NCBI GenBank assembly: GCA_029856045.1
Contig: JAHQWG010000043.1
Location: forward strand, 1 to 64,000
Reading direction: 5' to 3'
DNA length: 64,000 bases
From: Promethearchaeia archaeon
GTDB lineage: Archaea; Asgardarchaeota; Lokiarchaeia; Sigyniarchaeales; SOKP01
The notes beneath the pieces are model-generated. The model saw only the letters and a list, made by a program, of their open reading frames with translations, searched no databases and was not told the origin of the DNA. Shown piece by piece: positions 46,402 through 63,620 of the stretch. The position numbers and the translations under genes were made by a program. The first letter of the stretch is position 1. Each line of letters begins with the position of its first letter.

Positions 46402-46944
46402 TTATAATATAAAAATCGCTGCTGCAATTACTGTTGTCCATTCATTTTCTACTCCAACGGTTGCGGATGCAGTTATACTTTTTGTTTTAATTGCTTTTCC
46501 TTTTTCTCTAAAAAATTTGATTTTTTCATCATAATCTAAATTTTGATTAAATCTGATACCCCAAGTTGTTCCTAACATAGATGCGGCTAAATCTTCAGCA
46601 ATCACACCAGCTTTTCTACTTTCCATACCAAAAGCCTGATACTCACTAAGATATCCATAGGAATTATTATCCCTTGATCTTGCCATACCAATTGAAGCTG
46701 AAAATAATTTGTTTAATTCGTTTGAACTGGCCTTACACATCACTGTATAGACAATTTGTCCAGGTTTCAAGAGTTTTAAACCACTTGAAATTGAAATCTC
46801 CTCACATTTAGGAGGTATGATAGATGATACTTTTACTAAATTAAATTTCTCAATACTTGCGTTTCTAAGTGCTAACTCAAACGATTGTAATTTATCATAA
46901 TGATTACCAACACCTTTAGTAAAAAAAATTTTTTTGGGTATCAT
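46402..46944 (-). CDS. pdaD: pyruvoyl-dependent arginine decarboxylase
   Basis: SFELALRNASIEKFNLVKVSSIIPP (S-S cleavage site), GYLSE, WTTVIAAA. Confidence 0.92.
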   Translation of the reverse strand: MIPKKIFFTKGVGNHYDKLQSFELALRNASIEKFNLVKVSSIIPPKCEEISISSGLKLLKPGQIVYTVMCKASSNELNKLFSASIGMARSRDNNSYGYLSEYQAFGMESRKAGVIAEDLAASMLGTTWGIRFNQNLDYDEKIKFFREKGKAIKTKSITASATVGVENEWTTVIAAAIFIL

Positions 46945-46992
46945 ATAGTTATACCTTTAATAATAATGTGCATGAGCTAAAAGATTAAGTTT

Positions 46993-47166
46993 ATGATTAA
47001 ATTAAAGAGGCAAGGAATGACAAATCTTGCAATTAGTAAAGAATTAGAATATGATAATAAAATAGTTGGGAAATATCTCAAAAAATTTATGCCCGATTAC
47101 AATAAATATAAACTCTTAGCGATAAGAAACGAAAGGTATCTTCGAAAGATTTCAAAAGATTCCTAA
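46993..47166 (+). CDS. small helix-turn-helix protein or remnant (57 aa, below the ORF-track cutoff)
   Basis: Manual translation gives MIKLKRQGMTNLAISKELEYDNKIVGKYLKKF..., an HTH pattern. Confidence 0.45.
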   Translation: MIKLKRQGMTNLAISKELEYDNKIVGKYLKKFMPDYNKYKLLAIRNERYLRKISKDS

Positions 47167-47343
47167 ATAATCGGTTCTTTTAATAGCTTCTTTAGAAATA
47201 CTTGAGAGATATTAATAATTAATTATTATATCATTCATTTTTAATTAACTTTTATCAATAATAATAAATTAATTCACAATAGGCAATCATAGATAATGCT
47301 AAATTAAGGCATGACCATCAATCAGTTTGCGAATTATTCAAAT

Positions 47344-47814
47344 TCAATCGAATACCTTTTCTAATACAATTATTATAGGTTTGAAGCCCCCTCCTCTACA
47401 GATAACATCTTGTACTTTTTTATCTCCATCATATGCAAAATTAATTCTTATTCTATCAACACCCCATGATCTTAAGAGTTTAATAGCTCTTTCAGCCAAT
47501 ATCTTCCCTATACCTTTTCCAAGATATTCTTTCTTGGTTGCCCAACTTTCAAGATACCCAATATATTCACCAAGTGAAGATTTTTTAGCTTCTAATACTC
47601 CTAGAGCTACAACTAAACTATCAAATTCAGCAACTAATGTCATTCTCTTTAAATTGGGTTTAAATTGCCGTAATCCGGAAGATTCCTTCCATTTATCTTC
47701 ATTAAATCCCATATCATATAATTCTGATAATTCTTTTAAAATTTCAAGAGTTTCTTGATAATCAGATTTTCGATAATTTCGAATTATAATTTTATCTTCA
47801 TCCATAATCAACAC
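47344..47814 (-). CDS. GNAT family N-acetyltransferase
   Basis: Motif A YLGKGIGKIL, and IIIRNY at the N-terminus. Confidence 0.88.
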   Translation of the reverse strand: MLIMDEDKIIIRNYRKSDYQETLEILKELSELYDMGFNEDKWKESSGLRQFKPNLKRMTLVAEFDSLVVALGVLEAKKSSLGEYIGYLESWATKKEYLGKGIGKILAERAIKLLRSWGVDRIRINFAYDGDKKVQDVICRGGGFKPIIIVLEKVFD

Positions 47815-47830
47815 TATATTTATTTAAATT

Positions 47831-48856
47831 TTACATATATTTTTTTATTTCAATTAGTTTTGAAAAAATTCTTAAATTTTTATCTTTTTGATTTATATTC
47901 AAAATATAAGAATCTATATGGGGATACAATGGAGCTACAAAGAGCAACTCCTCATGCGGATACCATTCATCAACAAATTCATTCAATATTTCTTTCTCAA
48001 AAAATTCTCTAACATGAGAAATAGTTACTTGTATAGAATGCATATTGGCTTCAGAAGAGTTTTCAATAACAACTTCTAATTCTTGACTGTTTTTTGAAAG
48101 AGTTATTTCTGAAATTTTAAAAGGATTAAAAGTTCCTTGTAAAATTTTGGCAGAAGCTGCTTTTTCAAATAGATTTACATCATCATACGGTGCCCCTTCA
48201 AATCCTTTTAATGAAGAAATATAGAATCCCTTTAGTGCTAAAAAAGACATAGCTTTCTGTTTTTTAATTGAATCAGATTTGCTGTCCATTAACACATTTC
48301 CAAAATATTTTAAGATGGTATTATGAATATCGAAATTTATATTTTGTTTAATTTCATCACTTTTTTTTATATTCTCTAACACCGATTTGTTTTTAATGAC
48401 TACACTTTTAGCAATTTCTCCTTCAATTAATTTCCATAGAACATTACCATAATTTTTTTGTATAATTTTTAAAAGCTTTTTGATTATATAACTTCCAAAA
48501 ATTTCAATTTCATTAGGTAGGGCTACGATAATAACAATAGTTTCAGGAGTTTCTTTCTTTAATCCAGCTCTTTGTTTTTTTCGTTCAGATTTCACTAAAA
48601 ATTTTTTTGCAGAGTATATTTTATTTTTATATTCTAGATCCACATGATCTAATACTTCTTGTTCTTTAAAATCTAAAAACCAAATTGAATGGATATTTAT
48701 TGGTCGCATTGCTTTTGGATTATATATTAATTTTTCATCTGGATAAGATAATAATGGCATATGACCTCTCATTTCATCGAAATAAAGTAAGAAGACTTCA
48801 CACAGATTCAAACCAGAAGAATCTTTTATGCTTTTATCGTCAAATATGTCAGCCAT
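47831..48856 (-). CDS. uDENN/longin-like protein with C-terminal Ig-like domain
   Basis: VFLLYFDEMRGHMPLLSYP resembles uDENN/longin first strands. The C-terminal domain is shared with 59913-61406 and 62424-63620. Likely ATG at 48856. Confidence 0.6.
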   Translation of the reverse strand: MADIFDDKSIKDSSGLNLCEVFLLYFDEMRGHMPLLSYPDEKLIYNPKAMRPINIHSIWFLDFKEQEVLDHVDLEYKNKIYSAKKFLVKSERKKQRAGLKKETPETIVIIVALPNEIEIFGSYIIKKLLKIIQKNYGNVLWKLIEGEIAKSVVIKNKSVLENIKKSDEIKQNINFDIHNTILKYFGNVLMDSKSDSIKKQKAMSFLALKGFYISSLKGFEGAPYDDVNLFEKAASAKILQGTFNPFKISEITLSKNSQELEVVIENSSEANMHSIQVTISHVREFFEKEILNEFVDEWYPHEELLFVAPLYPHIDSYILNINQKDKNLRIFSKLIEIKKYM

Positions 48857-49005
48857 AATTTTTTCAGAAAGATGAAAAATTAAATATATAACAAATCTCA
48901 AATTAACAAATGTAAAGATAAAAATAAAATTTATTGTATTAATAAAGAATATATTGAATTTCTAACATCTTTATTTTATTTTTTTTTTAATCTATTTTTT
49001 TCCAG

Positions 49006-49179
49006 CTAATCTTCTCTAAGCATATAATATCTCAAATCATCAAAATAGCATCTATCAATATATATCCCTTCTTTTAATATTGTTTCTAATATAAATCCAT
49101 ACTTCTTAGCACTATATGATAAAGGTTTGTTTGGGGCAATTACTCCTGTAAAAATTTTAATTCTATAGTTTAAATCTTT
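49006..49179 (-). pseudogene. RimJ/RimL-type GNAT C-terminal remnant
   Basis: Manual translation KIFTGVIAPNKPLSYSAKKYGFILETILKEGIYIDRCYFDDLRYYMLRED*. No start codon for the domain, and TAG falls where W is typical. Confidence 0.55.
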
Positions 49180-49626
49180 CTAAATGTTGTTTAATGGTCC
49201 TAATTTCTTAATTTGATTTGTAAAAGTAGTTACTAATTCAGCAAATTTTTTCCCTTCACTTGCGGATATCCATTCAAGCCGAAATCTATCCTTTAATCCC
49301 AAATATTTTAAGATTTTCATTAACCGTTCAAATCTATCTTTTGTAAATTCATTCCCGCTAATATAGTGACAATCTCCTATATGACACCCAGTAACTAACA
49401 CACCATCTACATTATCCTTAAAAGATTTCAGAATAAAAGCTGGTTCAACTCGACCAGAACACATTACTCGAATTATTCTAATAGAGGCAGGATACTGAAA
49501 ACGAGATACTCCAGCCAAATCAGCTCCAGCATAGCTACACCAATTGCAGCAAAAACATACAATATTAGGTTTAAATTCCCTATCTTTTTTAACTTGTTTT
49601 TTATCTGATTTTTCTACGATTTTCAT
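49180..49626 (-). CDS. mvhD: hydrogenase iron-sulfur subunit MvhD (Cys form)
   Basis: [38 protein letters not shown]. Confidence 0.95.
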
Positions 49627-49645
49627 ATTTTTTCATTTATTCTCA

Positions 49646-52600
49646 TTAATTTTTTAAATAAGCCTTAATCATCGCATTTATTTGTTTAAAACTAAAATGT
49701 GAAATAAATATGGCCGAATTAGGGCATTGAACACCACAGGTACCACATCCTTTACATAACGCAGAATTAATATTGGATTTTTTTAAACAAAGTGTATAAT
49801 CTTCAAATGTTTTTTCAACCTCAATTAATTCTATTGCGTTATATGGACAAACGTCAGCACATTTCCCGCAGCCGATGCAATAATCTTCAATTACCTCAGC
49901 AACAAGACCAGAAGTTTTCATTTCTTTAGCACTTAAAATCCTGATAGCTCTTCCAGCTGCACCATTTGCTTGAGCTATTGATTCTTGAATATTCTTAGGC
50001 CAATGAGCGCAACCACATAAAAAAACTCCATCTGTTGCAAAATCAATAGGTCTTAGTTTAACATGAGCTTCTAGAAAAAAACCACTTTGATCTTGCGGAA
50101 CTTTCAGCATTTTTGATAATTCTTTAAAATTTTCAGGTGCAATCATAGGTGTAGCTAAAATTATAAGATCGCCATAAAATTCTACTTCTCCTTTTAAATT
50201 GTGTTCGAATAACGTAATTTTATAATTAAATTTTCCATTTTTAGTTTTTGAAATTATAGGAAGTTTATCCAATGAATATCGTAAGAATAAAGCGTTTTTT
50301 CTTGAATCTCTATAAAATTCTTCATTTCCTTTTTTGGACATTTGAAGATCTCGATAAATTAAAATTAATGCCAAATCAGGTTTTAATTTCTTTAAGATAT
50401 TAATATTCTTTAATGCATTTGTACAACATATATTGGAACAATATGTTATACCCTCTTTTTGTCTGGAATTCACACATAAAATAAATGTAATACTTTTAAT
50501 ATTATCTAGCCATTCTATATTTTCTTTCCTTAATTTTTGCTCTAATTCAAGTTGTGTAATAACATTTTTTTCTTTTTTATAATTGTATATTGTTTCCGGT
50601 ATCAACTCATTCGCTCCAGTTGCAACAATTATTATTCCAACTTTTATATTATTTACTTTATTTCCTTTAGTGGTTATTATAACATCATAATTTCCAATAT
50701 ATCCCCTAATTTCCGTGATATTTGAATTCAAATAAATATTAATGTTTGAATGTGATTTTACTTTATTTACAAAAGGTTCTAAAAATTCTGAGGCTTTTTG
50801 ATATCCTGGGAAAATTTGATATAAATTATTTAAATTTCCACCAAGTTTAGATTCCTTTTCTACAAGATGGGTTGTAAACCCTTGTATTGCAATATTTAAT
50901 GTGGCTATTAAACCAGAAATGCCACCTCCGATTATTAATGCCTCTGGAGTAATTGATAGTTTTGATTCTTTTTGTGGTTTTAATAATCTCGATTTTGCAA
51001 CAGCCATTTCTATGAGGTCTTTGGCTTTCTTAGTTCCATCCACTTTTTGTTCCATATGTACCCAAGAACATTGATCTCGAATATTAACCATTTCAAAAAG
51101 ATATTTATTCAAACCCGCTTCTTCACATGTTTCTTGAAATAATTTTTCATGGGTTCTAGGCGTACAGGACGCAACTATAAATCTATTTAAATCATACTCA
51201 GCAATTAATTCCTTAATTCTAGTTTGGGAATCACTAGAACATGAATATAAATTATCTACTGCAACAGTCACATTAGGTAATGTTTTGATATATTCTAAAA
51301 CCTGGGGAACATCTACATATTTTCCAATATTTATTCCACAATGGCAAATCATAACACCTATGCAAGGTTCATCTTCTAAATTTATCTTTTTTTCAGGTAC
51401 AGATACTACCTTTTCTTTTAATAGAGTATTTCTCACTAGATATAGTAATGTTGAAACCTTATTTGCTACTCCACTTGCATCAGCAACTGTTTCAGGGATA
51501 TCTAATGGTCCTTGACAAAAACCACATAGAAAAATTCCTTCTTGTTCAGATGATAATTTATCATATAATGTCTTTTCTTTAAAAAACTTATATTTATCAA
51601 CGTTTATTCCTAATATTTTGGCAACCTTCTCAGAATCCTCAGATGGTACTAATGGTGTTGCTAAAACTACTAAATTTGCCCTTAAATCATGAAATTTCCC
51701 ATCATCGAGATCTTCATATTTTATAATTAAATCTTTAGTCTTAGGGTCTTCTACTATTTTGCTAATTTTTGAATTAAAATATTTAACCCCATACTCATCT
51801 TGTGCTCTTTGAGTATATTCATAAAAATTTTTCCCATATGCCCTCAAATCATGCCTAAAAATATAACATTCTGAAGAATTCGAATGTTCTTTAGTAATTA
51901 TTGCTTCTTTTGCTGTATACATACAACAGACACTAGAACAATAAGGAATTCCAATATGAAAATCTCTAGAACCAGCACATTGTATAAAAGCAATTTTATG
52001 GGGTTCTTTCTCATCTGATAATCTTAAAACGTGCCCCTCGAATGGACCAGAAGCACATAAAATCCTTTCATACTCTAAAGAGGTAATAACATTTTCATAT
52101 TTATAACCCCAATTATCTGGAAGTTTAGAAGCTAACATATCAAAACCAATAGCAACTATAATTGCCCCAACTTCTATTTGGACTTCTTCTGGTTTCTGCT
52201 CAAAATTAATCGCTTGGGCTTCACAGATTCTTTCACAAACTCTACATACCCCTTTATTCAAAAATAAGCACATATCTGAGTCTATTAAATAAACTGGAGG
52301 TACAGCTTGTGGAAAGGGGATATAAATAGATTTTCTTCTCCCCAAATTCATATCAAAAATATTTGGAGCCTCAATCTTAGGACATTTCGAGGCACAATCT
52401 CCACAACCCTTACATTTATCCTCATCCACATATCTGGGTTTTTTTAAAATTTTTATAAAAAAATGACCTGCATGACCTGATACTTCAATGACTTCTGAAT
52501 AAGTCATTAATTTAATATTTGGATTTCTAAAAACCTCAACCATTTTTGGAGCAAGAATACATAAAGAACAATCATTAGTAGGAAATGTTTTGTCTAATTG

Positions 52601-52771
52601 AGCCATACGTCCTCCAATTGAAGGAGTCTTTTCTACTAGAAATACTTTAAATCCCATTTCAGTTAAATCTAAAGAGGCTTGAATTCCTGCAATACCACCA
52701 CCAATTACTAAGGCTGCTCCGATTAAATCATCGGTTTGACTTTTTTGTGATGAGTTTTTACTTTTACTCAT
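49646..52771 (-). CDS. hdrA: heterodisulfide reductase subunit A, long two-module Cys form
   Basis: Two GGGIxG FAD motifs, DKTFPTNDCSLC, CSSVCC, internal CHCG/CTPRTHE module, and ferredoxin CxxCxxCxxxC motifs. Confidence 0.93.
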   Translation of the reverse strand: MSKSKNSSQKSQTDDLIGAALVIGGGIAGIQASLDLTEMGFKVFLVEKTPSIGGRMAQLDKTFPTNDCSLCILAPKMVEVFRNPNIKLMTYSEVIEVSGHAGHFFIKILKKPRYVDEDKCKGCGDCASKCPKIEAPNIFDMNLGRRKSIYIPFPQAVPPVYLIDSDMCLFLNKGVCRVCERICEAQAINFEQKPEEVQIEVGAIIVAIGFDMLASKLPDNWGYKYENVITSLEYERILCASGPFEGHVLRLSDEKEPHKIAFIQCAGSRDFHIGIPYCSSVCCMYTAKEAIITKEHSNSSECYIFRHDLRAYGKNFYEYTQRAQDEYGVKYFNSKISKIVEDPKTKDLIIKYEDLDDGKFHDLRANLVVLATPLVPSEDSEKVAKILGINVDKYKFFKEKTLYDKLSSEQEGIFLCGFCQGPLDIPETVADASGVANKVSTLLYLVRNTLLKEKVVSVPEKKINLEDEPCIGVMICHCGINIGKYVDVPQVLEYIKTLPNVTVAVDNLYSCSSDSQTRIKELIAEYDLNRFIVASCTPRTHEKLFQETCEEAGLNKYLFEMVNIRDQCSWVHMEQKVDGTKKAKDLIEMAVAKSRLLKPQKESKLSITPEALIIGGGISGLIATLNIAIQGFTTHLVEKESKLGGNLNNLYQIFPGYQKASEFLEPFVNKVKSHSNINIYLNSNITEIRGYIGNYDVIITTKGNKVNNIKVGIIIVATGANELIPETIYNYKKEKNVITQLELEQKLRKENIEWLDNIKSITFILCVNSRQKEGITYCSNICCTNALKNINILKKLKPDLALILIYRDLQMSKKGNEEFYRDSRKNALFLRYSLDKLPIISKTKNGKFNYKITLFEHNLKGEVEFYGDLIILATPMIAPENFKELSKMLKVPQDQSGFFLEAHVKLRPIDFATDGVFLCGCAHWPKNIQESIAQANGAAGRAIRILSAKEMKTSGLVAEVIEDYCIGCGKCADVCPYNAIELIEVEKTFEDYTLCLKKSNINSALCKGCGTCGVQCPNSAIFISHFSFKQINAMIKAYLKN

Positions 52772-53958
52772 TTTTTAGATACCTCCTTATTTTGTTGTGA
52801 GGGTATAACTTCAATAACGTTTTCCAAGAGATTTGATAAATCTATAACATTAATATCTTGGACAGTTTCTGTATCATTTTGAAGGCATCTAAAGTGAATT
52901 TCACATTTTGGACAAGTAGTGACTAAATTATCAGCAACATCTTTAGCTTCCAACATTCTATGATATCGAAGTGCTTTTGCTTTATCAGAACAATTTAGCC
53001 AACAACTTACTCCGCAACATAAAGAATTGGATTTATTGTGAACCATTTCATTATATACATAACCTACTTTTTCCAATTCTTTAAAAATATATCTTATTTT
53101 TTCATATATATTAAAAGATTTTGGTAAAAATCTACTTAATCTACATGGATCATGATAAGTTAATTTGAGTATTTTTGTGTTTTTCTTTTCCTTTTTAAAT
53201 TTAATTTTATTTTCCTTCAATTTCTCATAAAGATATTCAACAAGGTGTTTAACCTTAACATTAAAATTCTCAAACATCGAAGGATAATCAATTTTAAGAG
53301 TCCTATACCCTTCTGCACAAGAAGTTATTATTAAAGAAGCTCCACTTCTTTCAAAAGATTTAATATTATGGATTGCTAATTTTTTAAAAGCTTCGATTTT
53401 ACCTTGCCACAATAAATCATGACCACAACATTTTTCATCTTTCAACAAAACTATTGGTTCATTTTCAATTTTGCATAATATTTTTAAAGTATCTACAGCA
53501 TTATTCATTGACTCATCGAATTCATAACTAAAAAGGGGAGCACATCCTACAAAATATAAGATATTTCCCTTTTCTGATACCTCACACCCAGAAGGAACCC
53601 ACTCAAAAGTCTTTTCCGGAGTAATATTTTCTTTACTCATAATTTCCGAAAGAAGTGTATAGAATCCCTTATGAGCAATTTTAGGCATAATTCCGGCATC
53701 TAACATTTTATTTCTTGCATCACGTACTATTTCAGCAAAATTAACTTCATATGGACATTTTTCAAGGCAAGAATTGCAAGTTAAGCAATCCCAAAGCATT
53801 CCACTTTCAACAATTCGATCTTCAAAACCTTCAATGATCAGTTGTATTATCCTACTAGGAGTGTATTTTTGGATTCTTCCCATTTGGCAAATGCCACTAC
53901 ACATAGCACATTGATAGCAATTGTTAAGATATTCTCTTAATTTTCCTTTTATAATCAT
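52768..53958 (-). CDS. HdrD/GlpC-like Fe-S protein (2x[4Fe-4S] + two CCG domains)
   Basis: CYQCAMCSGIC, CLTCNSCLEKCP, KCCG, YHDPC, LCCG, CPKC. Confidence 0.9.
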   Translation of the reverse strand: MIIKGKLREYLNNCYQCAMCSGICQMGRIQKYTPSRIIQLIIEGFEDRIVESGMLWDCLTCNSCLEKCPYEVNFAEIVRDARNKMLDAGIMPKIAHKGFYTLLSEIMSKENITPEKTFEWVPSGCEVSEKGNILYFVGCAPLFSYEFDESMNNAVDTLKILCKIENEPIVLLKDEKCCGHDLLWQGKIEAFKKLAIHNIKSFERSGASLIITSCAEGYRTLKIDYPSMFENFNVKVKHLVEYLYEKLKENKIKFKKEKKNTKILKLTYHDPCRLSRFLPKSFNIYEKIRYIFKELEKVGYVYNEMVHNKSNSLCCGVSCWLNCSDKAKALRYHRMLEAKDVADNLVTTCPKCEIHFRCLQNDTETVQDINVIDLSNLLENVIEVIPSQQNKEVSKK

Positions 53959-53983
53959 AGAATTGTCAGAAATCTGAGTAATT

Positions 53984-55096
53984 TTAAAATTTAACTCCTA
54001 AGTTTTTTTGCGATAAATTATATCTATCTTCTTTATATTTTGAAAACTGAATTAATTTTTCTAACATTTTATCTCTTTTTCCTTCTAAATCCTCTAAAAC
54101 TTTTATATATCCCTCATTTATAGCGGATTTAACAATATTTGTTCCAAGTTTGGTTCTAGGTATAGTTGTTGTATATTTTTCAGGTGATGATAATCCACCA
54201 AATGAAATATCTGCATAAATATTAGTAAAATCATTACATGCATTACAAGCGGAACGAATATAATCTGATAATTCATTAAACGATATATGCTGAATAACTT
54301 CACTTCCTTTTAATTTTATTAACATATCTTCCTTAATATTTAATTTCTCAATCTCATCAATTTTTAAATTAAATTGAGTTTCAAATTTCTCTTTTTTATC
54401 TTTACCCATTGTAAAATTTCCATAACAAAATAATCCAAGAAGATATTTTATATTTTGAGAGGGGGTAACCCCCATTTCTTGCATGCATCTTATCGTATAA
54501 ATTTGGCAAGGCGTTCCTATAACAGCTAACTTTTTAAATTTATATCTATTTAATGCCATAATTGTAGGACTATAAGTACTAAAATTGGCAATTTCTGTTA
54601 CTTGTGAAGAAATATCAAAATGAGAACCTGCAGCTAAAATTAAATCATCTTTAGATTTTGCAATCATTGAATCTCTCGAAAATGGTCCCAACTTTTTTGA
54701 AACGATTGCTCCATCAATTAAATTATGTTCTAATAAATACAATAATATAGCAGATACTACTCCACCATCAGTTCCATTTTTTAAGAGATCTTTATCTAAC
54801 GCTTGAAATGAATATATCTTTTCATAATTGCCAAGTGGTTTGATATAATTATATTGATTATTTAAATCATTTTCTAATACTTTAGTTTGTGGACAAATAT
54901 GATAACATATTCCGCACTCTAAGCATTCATTTTCATTTATATATTGTGGTGGCAAATCTGGTTTAATAAAATCAATAATCTTATAATCAGCAGAACTACA
55001 AAAACTTACACACCCACCACATAATTGACAAATGCCTTTATCATGAACTTCTTTAATTAAATCTTTAAAATTTTTTATTGGTTTATCTTGACTCAT
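53984..55096 (-). CDS. F420 hydrogenase/dehydrogenase beta subunit (FrhB/FdhB family) with ferredoxin domain
   Basis: DGGVVSA, IGTPCQ, LGLFC, CNACND, ADISFG. Confidence 0.9.
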   Translation of the reverse strand: MSQDKPIKNFKDLIKEVHDKGICQLCGGCVSFCSSADYKIIDFIKPDLPPQYINENECLECGICYHICPQTKVLENDLNNQYNYIKPLGNYEKIYSFQALDKDLLKNGTDGGVVSAILLYLLEHNLIDGAIVSKKLGPFSRDSMIAKSKDDLILAAGSHFDISSQVTEIANFSTYSPTIMALNRYKFKKLAVIGTPCQIYTIRCMQEMGVTPSQNIKYLLGLFCYGNFTMGKDKKEKFETQFNLKIDEIEKLNIKEDMLIKLKGSEVIQHISFNELSDYIRSACNACNDFTNIYADISFGGLSSPEKYTTTIPRTKLGTNIVKSAINEGYIKVLEDLEGKRDKMLEKLIQFSKYKEDRYNLSQKNLGVKF

Positions 55097-55113
55097 TTTT
55101 TAATAAAATTTTA

Positions 55114-56595
55114 TTATTTTTTTACATCGAATTCAATTTTTTTACATTTTGAATTTTTAATTCCTGAAATTTTCTTAACCAAACCGAATCCAGGTTTTAC
55201 TTCAGCTAAATCCTTAACTTCTACTAAATTGCCATTTATTAATTTATTAAATAAATCATTCCCAACTTTTGTTCTTGTAATAACTGAAGACCAGCCTGCA
55301 CTAGAACCTATTGAACCTACTGAAATATCTGCAAATTCGGACGTTAAATCACTACAATAATGGCATACATCTCTTGCTAAGGAAGTTACTTCTTTTAATG
55401 GAACTTTGGCTTCTTCTCCATTTTTATCTTTGATAATAAATTTTCCTCCACTAATGTCCATTTTTAAAATGTTCTCTAATTTCTTATTAAAAATTTCAGT
55501 GCTTATTTTGATAACATTATCATAGCTGAATGATTCCATGCAGAATAAACCAATAGTATATTTAATATTATTAAAAAAAGATGTTCCAATTGGATAAATA
55601 CTTCCTTTTTTGAGTGCTAACATCATACATGGAGTTCCAACGACTGCAATTTTATCAAATTTTTGTGCTTCATTCAAAATTGTTAAACTTGGAGAATTAG
55701 CATATTTTGTACCAGCGGTTTTATAAAGATCATCAACATTCTCAATTATAATAGGTTTTGGCCTCCAAATATCTTCAGAATGGGTTACTGCTATCGCAGC
55801 ATCAATTTCTTTTTCTTTTAGTAAATAATATAACAATGTTGTTATTATACCACCATCTTGGCATACTTCTTTAATTTCATCACTTTTTGTACTTGCAGTA
55901 TATGCATTTATATAATAATTACTTGCGGCACCATCCTTCAAATTAGGATTTAATTTATTTAAAACTGTAAAAATATGCTCAGATGGAAATGACCTCGGGC
56001 AAACAGAAAAACAAAGTCCGCATTTAATGCAAGTCTCAGAATCAATTTTAAGATCATCTGCAGTTACTGTTATTGAGCCAACTGGGCATATTGATGAACA
56101 ATAACCACAATTACAACAAAAATTATTCTCAAATACTAAAGACACTGGCTCAAAATAATTTTCTCGAAAAGAATTATCAAGGGATTTGGCTTGATATCGA
56201 ATAATTTCAATCTTAATTTCTTTATCTATCAAATTTCCCTCTTTATTTTTTACTTTTTTAATTTCTGTCTTTATTTCAATTAATTTTTCAACATAACCTT
56301 GTTGGGTTAAATATTCAACTGTTTGTACTAATTTTTTCTTATCATATTCCACTTTCTCCACTATTTCTTCAAGAGTAAGCAGAGGAAGCCCTATTAATTT
56401 TTTTAATATTAAATTTCTTTCTGTCTCAGCATCGAGAAGTGAATCTAAAATAAAATTAAAATCTTCCTCACTAAATCTTCCAAATTTTAAAATATCATCT
56501 TTTCCTTCATATAATGCACGAATTTGAAAATTACTTATAGCGTTATATGTAGATTCCATTAGATTTTTTAGATCAGTATTTTCTATAAGATTCAC
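55114..56595 (-). CDS. FrhB-family protein with N-terminal helical/wHTH extension and ferredoxin domain
   Basis: QDGGIIT, GTKY, VGTPC, IGLFCME, CHYCSD, ADISVG. The first ~150 aa carry a wHTH pattern. Confidence 0.9.
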   Translation of the reverse strand: MNLIENTDLKNLMESTYNAISNFQIRALYEGKDDILKFGRFSEEDFNFILDSLLDAETERNLILKKLIGLPLLTLEEIVEKVEYDKKKLVQTVEYLTQQGYVEKLIEIKTEIKKVKNKEGNLIDKEIKIEIIRYQAKSLDNSFRENYFEPVSLVFENNFCCNCGYCSSICPVGSITVTADDLKIDSETCIKCGLCFSVCPRSFPSEHIFTVLNKLNPNLKDGAASNYYINAYTASTKSDEIKEVCQDGGIITTLLYYLLKEKEIDAAIAVTHSEDIWRPKPIIIENVDDLYKTAGTKYANSPSLTILNEAQKFDKIAVVGTPCMMLALKKGSIYPIGTSFFNNIKYTIGLFCMESFSYDNVIKISTEIFNKKLENILKMDISGGKFIIKDKNGEEAKVPLKEVTSLARDVCHYCSDLTSEFADISVGSIGSSAGWSSVITRTKVGNDLFNKLINGNLVEVKDLAEVKPGFGLVKKISGIKNSKCKKIEFDVKK

Positions 56596-56619
56596 CTTCC
56601 TAATTAAATTTTTTTTAAG

Positions 56620-56698
56620 CCCCCATATCCCTTGCAGGGATGTCCCAATAAAATTTCTTAATTTTAAGCTTTAATTTTAAAGATCATTCAAATGGGGG
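56620..56698 (-). ncRNA. eukaryote-type SECIS element (type II-like, with apical mini-stem)
   Basis: Helix I CCCCCAU:AUGGGGG. AUGA (56687-56684) and GA (56644-56643) core. 11-nt helix II UCUUUAAAAUU:AAUUUUAUUGG. Unpaired AAA and mini-stem CUUA:UAAG. Lies directly 3' of two UGA-containing genes. Confidence 0.85.
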
Positions 56699-57155
56699 TT
56701 TTAGTTTTTAATTTTTTATCTGCATCTTTTATTTCTGCCTTAAAAACTGCTTGATCTGTTTTTAATGGGTTCAATCCCAATTTTTCTATTTTATTTACCA
56801 TATCTTCGACCGATTTTACAAATTTTACAGCTTCAGCTCCAGTGCAGTTATACATGTTTACTCGGTCTCCTCCCAAACCACGCCTATCTAGAATTCGCCT
56901 AACAAATTCGACATGTTTTGCAGCGATAAAGTTTCCAGTTTTAAATTCACATTGATTTTCTAGTCAGCCTACAACCATTACTCCATCGGCACCATTATTA
57001 ATTGCATAGATTAGGTGTTTTATATCAACTCTACCTGTACAGCGCAGACGAATAATTTTTACATTGGGACTATATTTCAATCTTGAAACACCAGCTAAAT
57101 CTGCAGCACTATAACCTCATTTATTACAAGCAAATGTAATGATATTCATTTTCAT
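56688..57155 (-). CDS. vhuD: selenocysteine-containing MvhD/VhuD (U13, U64), 155 aa
   Basis: Continuous frame from ATG 57155 reading FACNK-U-GYSAADLAG, LRCTGRV, VVG-U-LENQCEF. TGA at 57117-57119 and 56964-56966 align with Cys of the mvhD paralogue. GGTGA SD at 57161-57165. Confidence 0.92.
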
Positions 57156-57178
57156 ATATCTCACCTGAATTTTTCGGT

Positions 57179-59122
57179 TTATGCATTTTCCTCCTTTACT
57201 AATGCTAAGACTTGATTAAATATTTGCTCATCTGTATAATATCTAATTTGTATTGCTTGAGTTGGACAACAAGTTGCACAGATTCCACATCCGTCACAAT
57301 TGATCTCATCGACCTCAGCAATTTTTCCTTCAGGTACAATAATAGCATTCTTTGGACAATTTTTTTCGCAGCGACAACAAGAAATACAATTTTCTTCATC
57401 AACAATCGCACATATTAATTCAAGCTCCGCTTCTCCCTTGGATGTTAATTCTGCAACCTTACTTGCGGTTGCTCTCGCTTGAGAAACCGAGTATGATATA
57501 TTTTTTGGTCCTTGCGCAAAACCACAAATATAAATCCCTAGATATTTTGTTTCTTGAGGACTTAAGCCAAAATGATGTTCAGTCAGGTATCCATTTGTAT
57601 CATAATCAATTCCAAGAACATCTGCTATTTGTTTCGTTCCTTTAGATGGTAATACTGCAGTTGATAAAACTACTAAGTCTGCATCAATTTTTATTATCTC
57701 ATCTGTTAATGAAGAATATACTCTTACCTTGAGATTTTTGGTTTCAGAATCCTCTATTAGTTCTGGAACTTTACCTCGAATAAAGTCAATACCTTTATCA
57801 CGAGTTCTCATATAGTATTCTTCAAAGTTCTTTTCAGATGCTCTTATATCAATGTAGCAGATGGTTATATGGCAATCAGGGATTTCTTCTTTAAGTAATT
57901 TAGCATTTTTTAAAGCGATCATGCAACACACACCAGAACAATACGCTCTTTCTGTATCTCTCGAGCCAACACATTGAATAAATAATATTTCTTTAGGTGT
58001 TTTTCCATCTGATGGTCTTTTTACATGGCCCATTGTTGGACCATTTGGTGCTAATATCCTTTCAAGCTGGATTTCGTTTATAACATTTTGATATTCTCCA
58101 TATCCATATTCTATAGGATTATATAAGTCCCAACCCGTTGCAACTATTATTGTACCCACTTCAATTTCGACATATTCAGGTTCTTGACTCAAATCAATTG
58201 CATGTGGCTCGCAAGCATCTACACAGGCATATCATTCAACGCAAGATTCTTTTTCAAGATCATAAACAAAAGGAATAGCTTGCCCAAAACATATATCGAT
58301 ACATTTTCTTGAACCTAAATTTTCTTGCCAATAATTTGGTATGTAAATTGGACATACTGGCGTACAATCTCCACAACCATTACACAAATCTTCTATAACA
58401 TATCTAGGTTTTTTCTTTATCGTAACTTCATAATTTCCAACATATCCTTCAACTTTATCAACTTCACTATAACTAATAATTTCAATATTTTCATTTCGAT
58501 TAGCTTCAAGCATTTTTGGACCAAGAATTCATATAGAACAATCATCAGTTGGAAATGTTCGATCTAACTGAGCCATTCTGCCCCCAATTGTAGTTTTACT
58601 CTCTATTAAATACACCCTTATTCCTTGATTTGCCAGATCTAATGCCGCATTTAATCCAGCGATTCCTCCACCAACTACCAAAGTAGCTTTTTTTATAGGA
58701 ATAATTTTTGTCGGTACTATTTCCAATCTTTTAGCCCTTTCATAACCTGCTCTGCTTAAAATCTTTGCTTTATTGGTTGCTGAAACTTCGTCTTCAGTAA
58801 TCCAAGAACATTGTTCTCTAATATTTACCATTTGAAAATAAAATTTACTAAGTCCTGCCCGTTCTAAAGACTCTCTATAAATCGGTTCATGAGTTCTAGG
58901 AGTTCAAGCTGCCGCTACAACCCGATTTATCTTTTTTTCTTTGATATCATCCATTATTAATTTCTGCCCTTGTTCAGTACATAAAAAACTAAAGATGCGA
59001 CTTGTTTCAATATTATCAAATTGTTTCATATACTCTGCAACTTCAGAACAATTAACTTTCGCAGAAATATTCAAGCCTCATTGACATGCATAATATCCAA
59101 TGCGTAAAATTTCTTTACTCAA
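57179..59122 (-). CDS. hdrA: selenocysteine-containing heterodisulfide reductase subunit A (U15, U73, U198, U297), 647 aa
   Basis: Single frame from TTG 59122 to TAA 57179, with in-frame TGA at 59078-80 (CQ-U-G), 58904-06 (AA-U-TPRTHE), 58529-31 (DCSI-U-ILGPK) and 58232-34 (CVE-U-YACVDAC). Joins the three ORF-track fragments. Confidence 0.92.
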
Positions 59123-59566
59123 TTTTTTTTCACATCAACTCGTTTAATAATTTTTATTTTAAAATTTATACTATTAGATTAAAAAAATTCAAAATGCTCC
59201 AAATTAAAAAAATTTTTTATAATAATTTTCAGATTCAATAATTTTATATTTTGAAATTACCTTATTTAATAATTTTTATCTTAATGATTATATAAATTAT
59301 TCGATACTGACAGAAATGGAAAATAAAATAATTAATTTTTACGAGAAACCTTAAGAAATTATTTTGAATTATACAATTTCGGTTATTATCCCCGATTTCC
59401 TAAATCTTTATATAAAATCATTTCCGAAATTGATAACTTCATTAATAATAATTTCGAAGACTAATAAAAAATCAAAAAAGAATTTTTAAATCCAAAAATA
59501 TATTTAAAAAAATGTATTATATTCCTAAATAAATTTAACAAAAAGAACAATACTTACAAAAGATAG

Positions 59567-59779
59567 ACAATAGAACTATTAAGTAATTATTTCAATTCAT
59601 GTAATAGAGCAATTTTTAAAAGAGATGTGGTTAAACATTTGGGAGAAATTGATGATGAAAAAATTCTTAAGTATCTTTTAAAATATGTAGGAGATTATCA
59701 TAGTAAAGTCCGGCTTTTAATGACTAAAATGATAAAAAAAATTGAAGCAAGAATAGATAACAAACTCAATAATCAATAA
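59567..59779 (+). pseudogene. probable HEAT-repeat gene remnant
   Basis: RDVVKHLGEIDDEKILKYLLKYVGDYHSKVRLLMTKMIKKI. The upstream part of the same frame is interrupted by TAG and TAA TAA. Confidence 0.35.
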
Positions 59780-59912
59780 AATATCTTTTTTTTCCTCTGA
59801 TATTTTTCTAAAAAAAATGAATTGTTATTTAATTATAATAATTTTTTTTAAGGATTAAGGTTTTAAATAAGTATTTCTATTCAAATCTCAGTGTAAATAA
59901 AGGTTTTATAGA

Positions 59913-61406
59913 GTGAGTGAAGAAATAAATAAAGTAAAATCTGAATCTAAATATGAACATTCTTTTGAATATATAAGAAAAAAATTAGAAGGAAAAAAAG
60001 ATTCATTTGGAAAATTAGTAAAGGAAGTTATAAGAACAGGTGTTTGTACTCATTGTGGCACTTGTGCAGCGATTTGCAGTGCTCTTGAATGGGATCCAAT
60101 TTTAGAGGAACCAAAATTAATTGGAGTATGTTCTGGGTGTGGAATTTGTTATAATCAATGTCCAAGGACTATTACTAATCCCGAACAACTTGTTGGTCAT
60201 TTTAAAACAGGTTATGTTACAAAAAGTGGAATTCCTGAAGTTATTGGTGGTCAGGACGGAGGAACCGTTACGAGCTTATTATGTTATTTATTTGATGAAA
60301 ATTTAATTGATGGAGCAGTTGTTACTAAAAAAAATCCAAATAAACCATGGGTTCCGTTACCTCAACTTATTAATACAAAAGAAGAAGCTGTTGAAGCTGC
60401 TGGTTCTATTTATAGCCATTCACAAACAGTTGATTCTTTAATTGACGGGATTAGAAATAACATGGGCTCTATCGCATTTGTAGGAACTCCTTGCAACATA
60501 GATGCTGTGTTTAAAATGGAAAGTAGTCCACTTGGAATGTTAAAATATTTTATGAGAGCACATGTTTTTAAAATTGGATTATTTTGTATGGATTCATTTT
60601 CACATGAAGCATTATTACCATTTTTTGAGAAGGAGGGAATTAAATTAGCGGAAATAACAAAAATGGATATCAATAAAGGAAAATTTTATCTTTACAGAGG
60701 AGATACAGAAGTAAAATCCTATAAAATAAGGGAATTAGATAAATTTAAATCATCAAGTTGCAATTTTTGCACAGATTTAACTTCAGAAAATGCTGATATC
60801 TCGGTGGGTTCTGTTGGAAGTGGCCCGAAGAAAAACACAGTTTTAGCACGATCAGGTATAGGAGTAGAAATTATAGAGGATGCTATAAAAAAGGGATATT
60901 TATGTTCTGAACCATTTTCAGTGGAAAATTTAAATTCTGTCTTGTTCTTAGCAAGATTAAAGAAAGTATCTCAATATACAGTTCTTAAAAGGAAGGTTTT
61001 TATAGTTAAAGATATAGATAAAAAAGAACCATTTAAACAATCACCAGAATTGAAAGAGCAAGCTGAGATCGCAACGCCGTTTGGAACAAGAAAAATTTTA
61101 AAGGTTACTCAAAAACTGAATGAAAGTCAAACGGCTACTGCAATTACAATAGAAAATGTTATTGGATATCTTCTTGAAAATTTACAAATTAGGGTTGCTT
61201 TTGTGGAAGAACTATTTGAAAAACGACCGTGGACTACAACAATAAAAGAAATTTTTCCTTTTGAATCTATTCAGATTAATTATCCATTAGAAATTAAAGA
61301 TGGAGAACACGATCTTGGAGAAATAATTATAGATATTTCTGATTCACATAGAAAACTCTTTTTTAAGAAATATTCTCTTAAACCAAAAGAAAAAAAATCA
61401 AAATAA
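59913..61406 (+). CDS. FrhB-family protein with N-terminal ferredoxin and C-terminal Ig-like domain
   Basis: CTHCGTCAAIC, CSGCGICYNQCP, GQDGGTVT, VGTPC, IGLFCM, CNFCTD, ADISVG, plus a ~100-aa extra C-terminal domain. Confidence 0.88.
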   Translation: MSEEINKVKSESKYEHSFEYIRKKLEGKKDSFGKLVKEVIRTGVCTHCGTCAAICSALEWDPILEEPKLIGVCSGCGICYNQCPRTITNPEQLVGHFKTGYVTKSGIPEVIGGQDGGTVTSLLCYLFDENLIDGAVVTKKNPNKPWVPLPQLINTKEEAVEAAGSIYSHSQTVDSLIDGIRNNMGSIAFVGTPCNIDAVFKMESSPLGMLKYFMRAHVFKIGLFCMDSFSHEALLPFFEKEGIKLAEITKMDINKGKFYLYRGDTEVKSYKIRELDKFKSSSCNFCTDLTSENADISVGSVGSGPKKNTVLARSGIGVEIIEDAIKKGYLCSEPFSVENLNSVLFLARLKKVSQYTVLKRKVFIVKDIDKKEPFKQSPELKEQAEIATPFGTRKILKVTQKLNESQTATAITIENVIGYLLENLQIRVAFVEELFEKRPWTTTIKEIFPFESIQINYPLEIKDGEHDLGEIIIDISDSHRKLFFKKYSLKPKEKKSK

Positions 61407-61484
61407 TAGATAAAAAAATTTTTCAACAAAATTTTTATTAAATCAAATTAAAAATTTAAATAAGAATAAACGAGATATAAAAAA

Positions 61485-62396
61485 ATGAAAATTAGTTTAA
61501 TAGGATTATCTGGTTGTGGAAAAACCTCTTTATATTCGGTAATATTCGCGGAAAAAACACCTGAAGAAACAAAGGGATTATCTCCAACGATACTCTATGA
61601 AACAAGAAGGCATCCCTTTTTAGGATTAGAAATATCAATTTTTGATTTTGGAGGTCAAGACCAATACATCAAAGAATATCTTGATAAGCCGAAAATATTC
61701 ATGGGCACGGATGTTCTCGTGCCTGTCGTAGATTTACACGATCCAAATTCTTTTGATAAATCAAAAAAGTATTTTGAAGATGTTTTAAAGTTATATAAAG
61801 ATAATTATCAGAAACCAAAAGTATGTCTATTTTATCATAAATATGATACTGAAGATTATCAAAAGGAACTTTTAGATACAAATATAATTAAAGCTAAAGA
61901 GTTTTTTTCGGACATGTTCAAAGATTATAACCCACAAACTTTCCTAACGAGTATCTATGATCAGCAAAATTTAACAAAGATTTTCAGAGATATATTAATG
62001 GGATCTTATTCAGAATTAAAGGGTCATATAGAAAAAGCGGAAAAGCACTTACAGGAGATAAATGCACGAATTATTATTTCCGATATATCAGGAAATGTTT
62101 TGGTTCATAATGTTCAAGGAGTTTCAAGCGGACTATCATTAAGGGCAGACTTAAGAGACTTTATCAGTTCTTGTAATGTAATTAGAGAGAATGTCTTTTT
62201 ATCTGATTCTGCAGAGTTTAAAGGAAATTCAGAAGAAGGTAAAGAGCTTCAACTATATATCTTTAAATACATATTGGCTGTTTTAATAATGAAATCGGAA
62301 AAGAAATTGGATCCTGAATCGAGTGAAAAGATAAGAGTTCTCCTCGAAGATATGAAATTATTTTCTGATATAATTGTTTCTATCCATTCTGAATAA
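61485..62396 (+). CDS. Rag/Gtr-like small GTPase with C-terminal roadblock-like domain
   Basis: GLSGCGKTSLYSVIF, LSPT (G2), FDFGGQ, Rag-type HKYD (G4), TSIYD (G5), and C-terminal IIISDISGNVLV. Confidence 0.85.
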   Translation: MKISLIGLSGCGKTSLYSVIFAEKTPEETKGLSPTILYETRRHPFLGLEISIFDFGGQDQYIKEYLDKPKIFMGTDVLVPVVDLHDPNSFDKSKKYFEDVLKLYKDNYQKPKVCLFYHKYDTEDYQKELLDTNIIKAKEFFSDMFKDYNPQTFLTSIYDQQNLTKIFRDILMGSYSELKGHIEKAEKHLQEINARIIISDISGNVLVHNVQGVSSGLSLRADLRDFISSCNVIRENVFLSDSAEFKGNSEEGKELQLYIFKYILAVLIMKSEKKLDPESSEKIRVLLEDMKLFSDIIVSIHSE

Positions 62397-62423
62397 TTTT
62401 TTTAGAGCGATCAAACGATAAAA

Positions 62424-63620
62424 ATGAAATTAAGTCTTGTTAATGATGATAATATCATTTTGGGAGATTATCTTAGTGTAATTACTAAAATTTTTTTTGA
62501 AGAGACAACTGATATCTTGTGGGGAGGTATAAAATTAATTTCTAAAAACCCATGTAAAAGAGACTTAATTATAACCAAATCTGAATTATTCAATCAAGGT
62601 ACTTTTGAGCCTGGTGAATATATCAGAAATAGATCACAACTTATTAATCCCAAAGTAGTTCCAACAATTCCAGCAAGAAATATTCACTACTTAGTTAAAA
62701 TGACTTTAAGAATTAAAAGTCCTCTTAATTCTCAAAAAGAAATAGAAATTTTTAAAGAAAATCCCATTAAAATTCTTCCAAAAGGGAATATGTTTCAAAA
62801 TAGAACTCCCACCCCAATTAAATTAATTATGTCAGGGATGAATATTGAAATTTCTAAAGATATTTTTAAACCAGGCGAAACTATTAAGATTGATTATAAA
62901 ACAGATAATTTAACATTATTTCAAATAAGATTAAAACAGAAGACTAATTTAATCTGTATTTGTGAACCTTTTGGTGAACAATGTGGAAGTATTGAGGAAT
63001 TACCTCCAGTGATTGCGGGTGTAGCAAAAACATCCAAAACAGATCAAGGTTTTCTATTGATAAAACTTCCAAATCACGCTGAACCAAGTCATGAATATCT
63101 TTGGGAACCTCAAGAAAAAGATCAGTGGGGAATTAAATTTGGGGATTATTCTAAATGGTTTCTGGAGATAATAGGAAATAGGAAGAGAGAAGTTGGGGGA
63201 GATACAATCTCTTTTGAAATCCCAATTATTGTAATCCCTCAAAAGGAGCAAGAAATAGTCGATAATAGTTTATTTAGAGAAAGAGAAGAGGGTTTAGAAT
63301 TATTTGAACCCCCTCCTGCAATAAAAAAAGGTATGAATATAATTTCTATTGATATTAATAAAGATACTTCTTCAAGTACATTTATTTATAAATTACGAAT
63401 TAAAAATAATCTTAAAGATACTCTTAACGGTGTTACCATAGAAAATTCAGGTATTCAACAAGGTCTATTTGAGACTTATAAACATATGATGGGATTTAAT
63501 ACATGGTTACCAGGAGAAGAAAAATCAATTGAATATAAAACAAGACAAGAAATTGATACCTTAATTTCTACAATCGAAACAAATTCTCAAAAGCAAATTA
63601 GAATTCAAACAATATTATGA
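62424..63620 (+). CDS. arrestin/Vps26-fold protein with C-terminal Ig-like domain
   Basis: FEPGEY..VVPT..NIHYLVKMTL (N lobe) and ISKDIFKPGETIKI..LPNHAEPS..FEIPIIV (C lobe). Confidence 0.6.
   Translation: MKLSLVNDDNIILGDYLSVITKIFFEETTDILWGGIKLISKNPCKRDLIITKSELFNQGTFEPGEYIRNRSQLINPKVVPTIPARNIHYLVKMTLRIKSPLNSQKEIEIFKENPIKILPKGNMFQNRTPTPIKLIMSGMNIEISKDIFKPGETIKIDYKTDNLTLFQIRLKQKTNLICICEPFGEQCGSIEELPPVIAGVAKTSKTDQGFLLIKLPNHAEPSHEYLWEPQEKDQWGIKFGDYSKWFLEIIGNRKREVGGDTISFEIPIIVIPQKEQEIVDNSLFREREEGLELFEPPPAIKKGMNIISIDINKDTSSSTFIYKLRIKNNLKDTLNGVTIENSGIQQGLFETYKHMMGFNTWLPGEEKSIEYKTRQEIDTLISTIETNSQKQIRIQTIL

Follow-up and report, generated by a model that had tools for sequence, protein, structure and literature searches.

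A conserved Asgard gene module around a RagA/Gtr1-type GTPase, with longin, flavoprotein and arrestin-fold partners that end in the same domain

The window analysed here is a 64,000-nucleotide stretch of a Promethearchaeia archaeon genome (assembly GCA_029856045.1, contig JAHQWG010000043.1, positions 1 to 64,000). It is AT-rich (~28% GC), and homologue searches placed the closest relatives of its proteins in Promethearchaeota/Lokiarchaeota metagenome bins. Four of its genes are the subject of this report, three of which encode proteins ending in the same domain, hereafter called the C-terminal domain (CTD). Gene 1 (P0001; 47831-48856, minus strand) encodes a longin-CTD protein of 341 amino acids (aa) counted from the ATG at 48856, within an open reading frame (ORF) that extends to a TTG at 48901. 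Gene 2 (P0002; 59913-61406, plus strand) encodes a 497-aa FrhB-type iron-sulphur (Fe-S) flavoprotein with two ferredoxin clusters, assigned by Pfam, and a terminal CTD. Gene 3 (P0003; 61485-62396, plus strand) encodes a 303-aa GTPase of RagA/Gtr1 type, recognised by Pfam and by its motifs, and gene 4 (P0004; 62424-63620, plus strand) a 398-aa protein, from a family of ~400 aa, in which an arrestin/Vps26 fold found by structure search is followed by a CTD. The Rag gene sits between the FrhB-CTD and arrestin-CTD genes, with gaps of 78 and 27 bp, and a Pfam-annotated Hdr/Mvh-type operon (49180-59122, minus strand) containing Hdr, FrhB-like and MvhD genes separates the longin-CTD gene from the FrhB-CTD gene; it is upstream of the former and shares its direction.

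The CTD occupies residues 240-341 of the longin protein (47834-48139, minus strand), where the AlphaFold2 (AF2) model has seven strands with predicted local distance difference test (pLDDT) values of 75-92; profile homology and alignment place the other copies at residues 385-497 of the FrhB protein (61065-61403, plus strand) and residues 295-398 of the arrestin-fold protein (63306-63617, plus strand). A first reading of the window (the original prediction) had proposed that three otherwise unrelated proteins share one private terminal domain. The three segments it quoted were all found where it had placed them, and the motif it described, I-x-N ... F-E ... P-x-E, is invariant in their alignment. 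Within the genome the similarity is weak to moderate (BLASTP E 5e-6, 0.046 and 0.78 for the three pairs); profiles of close relatives gave hhalign probabilities of 87%, 90% and 27%, and neither a hidden Markov model (HMM) of the three sequences nor family-specific HMMs gave more than weak cross-detection genome-wide, the best match among the latter being that of the longin-CTD model to the FrhB protein (E 0.003). The homology became firm once orthologues from other Asgard families were added to the profiles. With diverse members included, the longin-CTD aligned with the FrhB-CTD at 99.6% probability (P 4e-24), and the arrestin-CTD aligned with each of these two at 97% (P 9e-11 in both cases); with the longin-family profile alone, per-genome searches picked up FrhB ORFs of ~500 aa through their C-terminus (E 1e-14 to 1e-17). 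The HMM comparison that had been suggested as a check on the three segments is thus weak when confined to this genome and firm when orthologues are included, and the three proteins do carry a homologous ~100-aa beta-sandwich (hhalign 97-99.6%). A seven-stranded beta-sandwich is predicted for the CTD in both AF2 models, those of the longin and arrestin-fold proteins, and a 75-sequence alignment shows nearly invariant N27, F47, E48 and E63 together with a common W-x-P-x-E-E region.

The domain is rare in sequence and commonplace in fold. A profile search of the contigs found it in only three ORFs of the whole genome, against ~25 ORFs for Rag-like or other small GTPases (Rag profile) and ~9 FrhB paralogues. 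Among 1.84 billion representatives the CTD profile matched 123 clusters (E<=0.001), with longin (38), arrestin (18) or FrhB (9) N-termini; the remainder include numerous fragments from contig ends, a class of ~315 aa, one longin-CTD-4xCBS fusion and, at the tail, partial matches to multi-Ig proteins of ASH/DUF1573/Cep192 type. A Pfam scan of 75 CTDs assigned no family and gave no CARDB (PF07705) match at E<=1. Structure searches returned accessory domains of GH2 and GH3 enzymes, FlaF/FlaG, Asf1, RhoGDI and the GAE domain of BBS1, and the ESM Atlas neighbours of the longin CTD were its own family, then a 299-member FrhB cluster (template modelling score, TM, 0.77), then GH2 and CARDB proteins. 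Like CARDB, ASH and DUF1573 domains, the CTD is a seven-stranded sandwich with a strand-end Asn, and its profile weakly hits multi-Ig proteins at the search tail; unlike them it is found once per protein, at the C-terminus of proteins of cytoplasmic type, and has its own F-E and W-x-P-x-E-E motifs. We conclude that the CTD sequence family is private to this system, as first proposed, and that the fold is not, being a sandwich of the generic Ig-like kind that faintly resembles CARDB/ASH-type repeats. Elsewhere in the window, a 1345-aa protein (28497-32534) has a sub-threshold CARDB match only (19.8 bits, residues 1151-1231). Its CARDB-like domain scored 8.7 bits against the CTD profile and the three CTDs 85-98 bits, the latter values being inflated because these CTDs belong to the training set of the profile. 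If this Ig-like domain is related to the CTD at all, it is so only very distantly, and the comparison that the original prediction had singled out as capable of overturning it showed the CTDs to be closer to one another than to this protein.

In a tree of CTDs the copies group by host protein and not by genome. The arrestin clade (support 100/99) and the longin clade (89/78) are distinct, and the FrhB copies are paraphyletic, with a copy borne by an Nfn-like protein (see below) among them. Since the CTDs cluster by host protein, homogenisation or gene conversion within genomes was rejected, and the tree topology indicates an old triplication that has been maintained since.

The GTPase that had been noted between the FrhB and arrestin-like genes is of RagA/Gtr1 type by Pfam, by profile comparison and by its HKxD motif. 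P0003 matches Gtr1_RagA (PF04670) at 93.1 bits (cut-off 22; E 2.3e-26) and contains the G-domain motifs GLSGCGKT, DFGGQ and HKYD, the last being the Rag-typical HKxD in place of NKxD; H118, K119 and D121 are invariant in 28 Rag orthologues. The Rag profile matched the archaeal GTP-binding protein 8yl2 (3e-28), Gtr1 (1e-21), RagA (4e-21) and RagC (1e-12). A conserved domain of ~110 aa forms the protein's C-terminal portion, where Rag/Gtr proteins have a roadblock domain for dimerisation, and the Gtr2 match reaches residue 236. A second Rag copy, 54% identical (G000:C8:3469-4365, locus L034), was found only in this genus (G000, G125 and G144); its neighbours are genes for a phage-type integrase and for Cdc6/Orc1, no CTD protein is encoded close by, and it may lie on an integrated element.

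Gene 1 represents a conserved Asgard family of ~345 aa. The profile match spans 47834-48856, and all 169 homologues start at the equivalent of M16. In the AF2 model (pLDDT 79) a beta-beta-alpha-beta-beta-beta-alpha arrangement at residues 20-136 is followed by helices to ~208, a disordered linker and the CTD. Structure searches with the longin domain and its trailing helices (residues 17-190; 48287-48808, minus strand) found the folliculin and NPRL2 longins to be closest. The top VIA match was FLCN (6nzd_H; Z 10.2, root-mean-square deviation 3.4, 145 residues aligned), followed by NPRL2 (8fw5_B; Z 9.8); Sec22 (Z 9.6), the Lokiarchaeal longin 8yqg (Z 9.3), BLOC-3, VAMP7 and SR-alpha come next, all of them less than one Z unit behind. 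The Atlas, using its own model, returned a Heimdall cluster partly annotated as Pfam Folliculin and then eukaryotic Npr2, NPRL2 and NPRL3, these folliculin-like and Npr2/NPRL2/NPRL3 clusters having TM values of 0.50-0.56 to the longin domain. Because two structure searches on two different models agree, we assign the modelled N-terminus to the longin domains of the FLCN/NPRL2 kind. Foldseek with the whole longin model yielded Ig-like matches to the CTD only, the longin domain surfacing with VIA and the Atlas, and a sequence search of the longin family against PDB chains gave nothing useful (best E 0.43). The protein had been described as uDENN/longin-like. VIA and the Atlas uphold the longin fold; the uDENN part fell, there being no DENN core and no Pfam match, and DENN membership was rejected on the absence of that core. 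The C-terminal half of the protein consists of a helical hairpin and then the Ig-like domain, with no DENN or NPRL2 C-terminal domain.

An Arg-rich loop, S-x-R-x-K-x-R-A-G (residues 90-98; 48563-48589, minus strand), connects strands 4 and 5 as predicted for the longin domain. S90, R92, K94, R96, A97 and G98 are invariant in 54 family members, and every family retains the loop, as does the CBS fusion, the one loss being in a second longin paralogue of the family labelled f22. In the model it falls within a low-confidence stretch between E79-88 and E105-114. Because this loop is invariant, the longin-CTD protein is a candidate GTPase-activating protein (GAP) and the loop a candidate arginine finger. 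The strand 1-2 junction of the longin domain has a conserved F-D-E-x-x-G-H-x-P.

Residues 1-275 of P0004 (151 homologues; AF2 pLDDT 74) form a two-lobed arrestin fold. The best VIA match was Vps26 (Z 14.2, 239 residues aligned), and Spo0M, Rgp1, ARRD-6, visual and beta-arrestins, Vps26C and TXNIP followed at Z 11-13.6 (ARRD-6, Z 13.3 with 257 aligned; arrestins, Z ~13). At the sequence level the protein is below the Pfam cut-off for arrestins (Arrestin_C, 14.3 bits versus 27.7); the profile of the family matches ARRD-6 at E 0.0082, and two homologues carry a precomputed PF02752 hit. The proposed arrestin-like N-terminus is borne out by structure as an arrestin/Vps26 fold. P0004 shares the two-lobed fold with the arrestin clan (Vps26 of retromer, alpha-arrestins/TXNIP, Rgp1, Spo0M), from which it differs in lacking Pfam-level membership and in having an extra C-terminal Ig-like domain. 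Some members of the clan work with small GTPases or a redox protein: Rgp1 is part of the Ric1-Rgp1 guanine nucleotide exchange factor for Rab6, and TXNIP binds thioredoxin.

P0002 was correctly recognised as an FrhB protein, having both FrhB_FdhB_C (4.5e-40, 137 bits) and FrhB_FdhB_N (4.6e-20, 72 bits) and conserved Fe-S cysteines, all twelve of which are invariant in 25 FrhB-CTD orthologues. It resembles the FrhB/FdhB (F420-reducing hydrogenase beta) subunits of Hdr complexes in its two domains and full set of cysteines, and has paralogues in the neighbouring Hdr operon; it differs in carrying a CTD, which the other ~8 FrhB paralogues of the genome lack, and in being encoded beside a GTPase and not a hydrogenase. 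The Hdr/Mvh-type operon, in which Pfam finds no hydrogenase large subunit, encodes a probable selenocysteine (Sec)-type HdrA, two FrhB-like proteins, an HdrBC-like CCG protein, a fused double HdrA and MvhD. The first of these genes (57179-59122, minus strand) is a single 648-codon frame whose sole interruptions are four TGA codons, which all fall on Cys positions of Fe-S or CxxC-type motifs, and probably encodes a selenocysteine HdrA; a Cys-type fused HdrA is present in the same operon at 49646-52771. Use of F420 by the organism is plausible because genes for CofE and CofD are present: a CofE-type F420 ligase gene lies close to cofD (G000:C27:42898-45192), and a second F420 ligase gene is found at C36:145280-145939.

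Co-occurrence was counted in 151 genomes sampled across the phylum, with families labelled f1, f7, f8, f9, f13 and so on; as the genomes are related, the counts are descriptive and not a statistical test. The Rag orthologue (E<=1e-40, 44-70% identity) was found in 41 of the 151, belonging to f1, f8, f18, f19 and f22, and the longin-CTD family also in 41, from the same five families; 39 genomes have both, out of 43 with either. The arrestin-CTD protein is present in 33 genomes of f1, f8, f18 and f19, and all 33 have the Rag orthologue. Full-length FrhB-CTD occurs in the five Rag-bearing families and in f13; the FrhB orthologues of f7, f9 and f15, families in which the Rag orthologue is missing, end before the CTD.

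Gene order is likewise retained. FrhB-CTD directly adjoins Rag in 30 of 32 genomes with both genes on one contig, and the arrestin gene is the neighbour of Rag in 15 genomes, while in 13 the two share a strand at a distance of 1-24 kb. The set is most compact in f8 and f19, where ~7-8 kb of one strand hold a CBS pair, longin-CTD, a C25 peptidase, FrhB-CTD, Rag and arrestin-CTD. The order in f18 is longin-CTD, HdrA, MvhD, FrhB-like and FrhB-CTD, convergent with arrestin-CTD and Rag. A genome of another f1 genus (G135) resembles the window in having HdrBC, double HdrA and MvhD genes between FrhB-CTD and two tandem longin-CTD genes; Hdr/MvhD genes lie between module parts in three genera, those of G135 and G025 included. 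The synteny with Rag and Hdr/Frh genes on which the original prediction had staked its proposal is therefore conserved, with the gene set co-inherited across five Asgard families, and we conclude that it is a conserved Asgard (Promethearchaeota) module around one RagA/Gtr1-type GTPase. The peptidase gene of f8 and f19 (Peptidase_C25, gingipain-type, with CarboxypepD_reg) always stands between longin-CTD and FrhB-CTD (L001:7059-9080; L006:6430-9045; L002:6639-9188), and in f8 its product additionally has DUF4350 and GIFT-like parts.

The module differs in composition in f22. The arrestin-CTD protein was not found there at E<=1e-10, on which ground it was rejected as a universal member. In one f22 genome (G139) the Rag gene is followed on the same strand by NuoE-, NuoF-, NuoG/Fdh- and NfnA-like genes and then by a gene for a 577-aa NfnB/GltD-like flavoprotein (Fer4_20 and Pyr_redox_2) that ends in a CTD. 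The opposite strand has a 315-aa longin-like CTD protein without the Arg-rich loop, a longin-CTD protein with it, and a CBS pair. Another genome of the same genus (G130) has a run of longin-b, longin-a, CBS and FrhB-CTD genes convergent on Rag. The 315-aa protein was considered as an arrestin remnant and rejected, having no similarity to the arrestin part; its N-terminus is 24% identical to the longin family over 152 columns (hhalign E 0.006, with a probability of only 6%). By analogy, the f22 longin pair, one with and one without the Arg-rich loop, recalls NPRL2-NPRL3 and FLCN-FNIP. CBS-pair genes also adjoin the longin-CTD gene in some other lineages, and the longin-CTD-4xCBS fusion (P0286) joins the two in one protein. 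The CTD thus marks a flavin/Fe-S subunit beside this Rag orthologue in two different enzyme families, and the flavin/Fe-S link recurs in three independent arrangements: Hdr/MvhD genes between the module parts, FrhB-CTD beside Rag, and NfnB-like-CTD in a Rag-led operon. Upstream of that operon are two more tandem Rag-like GTPase genes (one matching Gtr1_RagA at 9.5e-36) and an MFS transporter gene (L026:352-4411; G139:C30).

Directly downstream of the longin-CTD gene lie genes for a GNAT acetyltransferase and a pyruvoyl-dependent arginine decarboxylase (46402-47814, minus strand), and downstream of the arrestin-CTD gene are an acyl-CoA dehydrogenase, an unassigned 271-aa ORF and a PAS-PAS histidine kinase (G000:C44:63880-68599, locus L035). 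A look-up of sequencing runs found the DNA in marine-sediment and salt-marsh metagenomes and listed no RNA run.

The GTPase of the module is like eukaryotic Rag/Gtr proteins in its RagA/Gtr1-type G domain, HKxD motif and C-terminal domain. The longin protein inherited with it is structurally nearest to FLCN, NPRL2 and NPRL3, the longins of GATOR1/SEACIT (NPRL2-NPRL3) and FLCN-FNIP, and has the conserved Arg-rich loop as a candidate arginine finger; one lineage of the module has a longin paralogue pair with and without that loop. Unlike the eukaryotic system, the module has one Rag gene and no heterodimer pair; no counterpart of Ragulator, TOR or DEPDC5 was seen at the locus; its partners share an Ig-like domain; and it is linked to Fe-S flavoenzymes and not to amino-acid sensors. 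The longin also differs from FLCN and NPRL2 in lacking the DENN or NPRL2 C-terminal domain and any Pfam match, and in having G-x-x-P in place of GP. Asgard Rag-like GTPases, NPRL2/FLCN-like longins and arrestin-like proteins have been published already (10.1101/2020.10.19.343400; PMC10933270; PMC12290439). Eukaryotic longin GAPs and a class of Asgard longins are reported to have in common a GP motif where strands 1 and 2 join, together with an arginine finger (PMC12290439), and the GTPase partners of the Asgard GAP-type longins are stated to be unknown (PMC12290439, Traffic 2025). The module longin resembles these proteins and the NPRL2-like longins of Liu et al. (10.1101/2020.10.19.343400) in its likeness to FLCN/SMCR8/NPRL2 and its conserved arginine; the descriptions in those papers name no GTPase partner, no such gene context, no CTD, no FrhB or arrestin partner and not this family, which may yet be among their 15 sequences. 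A literature search found no description of the CTD, of its three or four hosts, of the FrhB-Rag-arrestin unit or of the Hdr/Nfn-type link, in keeping with the statement in the original prediction that none was known.

The reading that we prefer is of one Rag-centred assembly. The CTD would be a common docking tag that gathers three proteins around the GTPase, the CTDs binding either each other or one site on a Rag dimer. Rag would have a GAP-like regulator in the longin protein with its Arg-rich loop, just as the eukaryotic Rags have theirs in NPRL2 and FLCN. Redox and energy state would reach the switch through the flavoprotein and, in other lineages, also through a CBS pair that is adjacent or fused, and the arrestin-fold protein would be an adaptor or an output. 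Redox and energy are tentatively favoured as the input side of the switch. We hold the scheme as a whole tentatively, as a serious possibility that falls somewhat short of being probable.

Several observations weigh against it. The docking, GAP and redox-input roles are inferred from the Rag-GATOR1/FLCN analogy and from domain logic. When 54 members of the longin family were compared with Pfam Folliculin (PF11704), NPR2 (PF06218) and uDENN, there was no match at E<=1. In the longin domain G31 is invariant and P34 nearly so, which gives G-x-x-P at the start of strand 2 and not the contiguous GP of GAP longins, and the equivalence of the Arg-rich loop to the loops of FLCN R164 and NPRL2 R78 is putative. 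The CTD fold is, as described above, that of a generic Ig-like domain. The module holds one Rag gene, and eukaryotic Rags are obligate heterodimers; a Rag homodimer is possible. Most f1 genera have their longin gene at a distance of over 20 kb or on a separate contig. Finally, f13 includes three genomes, two being closed (96-97% complete), that have FrhB-CTD as their sole CTD protein and in which no Rag orthologue was found (L030, L031; G012:C1:170599-172023 and G023:C1:186264-187685; no longin-CTD or arrestin-CTD found in these genomes), so the CTD can persist without the module. A complex prediction for Rag with the FrhB CTD, the arrestin CTD and the full longin protein gave an ipSAE (interaction prediction score from aligned errors) of 0.00; it was run without controls and counts neither way.

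The same assembly might also run in the reverse direction, with the Rag switch controlling the flavoenzyme through its CTD subunit, so that the enzyme is output and not sensor; Rag would then recruit, assemble, localise or gate Hdr- or Nfn-type electron-bifurcating complexes. The CTD does sit on subunits of multi-subunit redox complexes, Rag is the first gene of the NuoEFG-like/Nfn-like operon in f22, Hdr/MvhD genes lie inside the module in three genera, and the retention of all twelve Fe-S cysteines suggests that FrhB is a working redox protein and not a degenerate sensor. However, the GTPases generally known to mature metalloenzymes are of the G3E/SIMIBI class and not of Rag type, and the CBS pairs, whether adjacent or fused, speak for a ligand being sensed upstream, and we consider this direction somewhat unlikely. 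Another reading dispenses with a common complex: the CTD would be a generic Ig-like stabilising or self-association domain, duplicated long ago among neighbouring genes and retained by every host for a reason of its own, and the synteny would reflect co-regulation or chance retention. The solitary FrhB-CTD of f13, the generic fold and the loose linkage of the longin gene in many f1 genomes are what it would lead one to expect. It accounts less well for the same rare domain being kept, with nearly invariant motif residues, on three hosts and a fourth, NfnB-like one over deep divergence, for the near-perfect co-occurrence with one Rag orthologue (39 of 43 genomes with either), or for the absence of the CTD from FrhB orthologues in the Rag-less families f7, f9 and f15; we judge it unlikely.

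That the arrestin/Vps26-fold protein, longin and GTPase form a proto-coat or trafficking adaptor that sorts membranes, with the CTD as an "ear" platform and the redox genes as bystanders, seems very improbable. The arrestin part does have Vps26 as its best structural match, the GAE domain of BBS1 is among the structural matches of the CTD (Z 9.5), and four CTDs weakly match Pfam GAE_BBS1 (best E 0.0018); this GAE similarity is under any threshold and does not exceed that to many other Ig-like domains, no element for membrane binding or for cargo was identified, and linkage is tightest for the redox partner, whose gene adjoins Rag in 30 of 32 genomes. Returning to the Rag-centred assembly with a redox and energy input, a more far-reaching version makes the module a prokaryotic forerunner of Rag-GATOR1/folliculin signalling, in which a CTD-docked Fe-S flavoprotein signalling redox state and a CBS pair signalling adenylate state would gate a longin GAP on the Rag-type GTPase, and the arrestin-fold protein would read Rag. 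We regard this version as doubtful.

The GTPases of Rag, Rab and Arf type in Asgard archaea number in the dozens, and longin and roadblock proteins are likewise many; as a rule the GTPase genes do not share operons with genes of the latter two kinds, so that regulators cannot be matched to GTPases (PMC10933270). The module described here offers one specific conserved pairing, that of a Rag orthologue with an FLCN/NPRL2-like longin, an arrestin-fold protein and a flavoenzyme. The pre-eukaryotic role of Rag-type switches thereby becomes testable with four small recombinant proteins, whose common CTD can be deleted or swapped. By analogy with the eukaryotic system, the arrangement suggests that the ancestral input to Rag may have been redox or energy state rather than amino acids; if the module is indeed a forerunner of Rag-GATOR1/folliculin signalling, energy sensing by a Rag switch would be older than eukaryotes, TOR and lysosomes.

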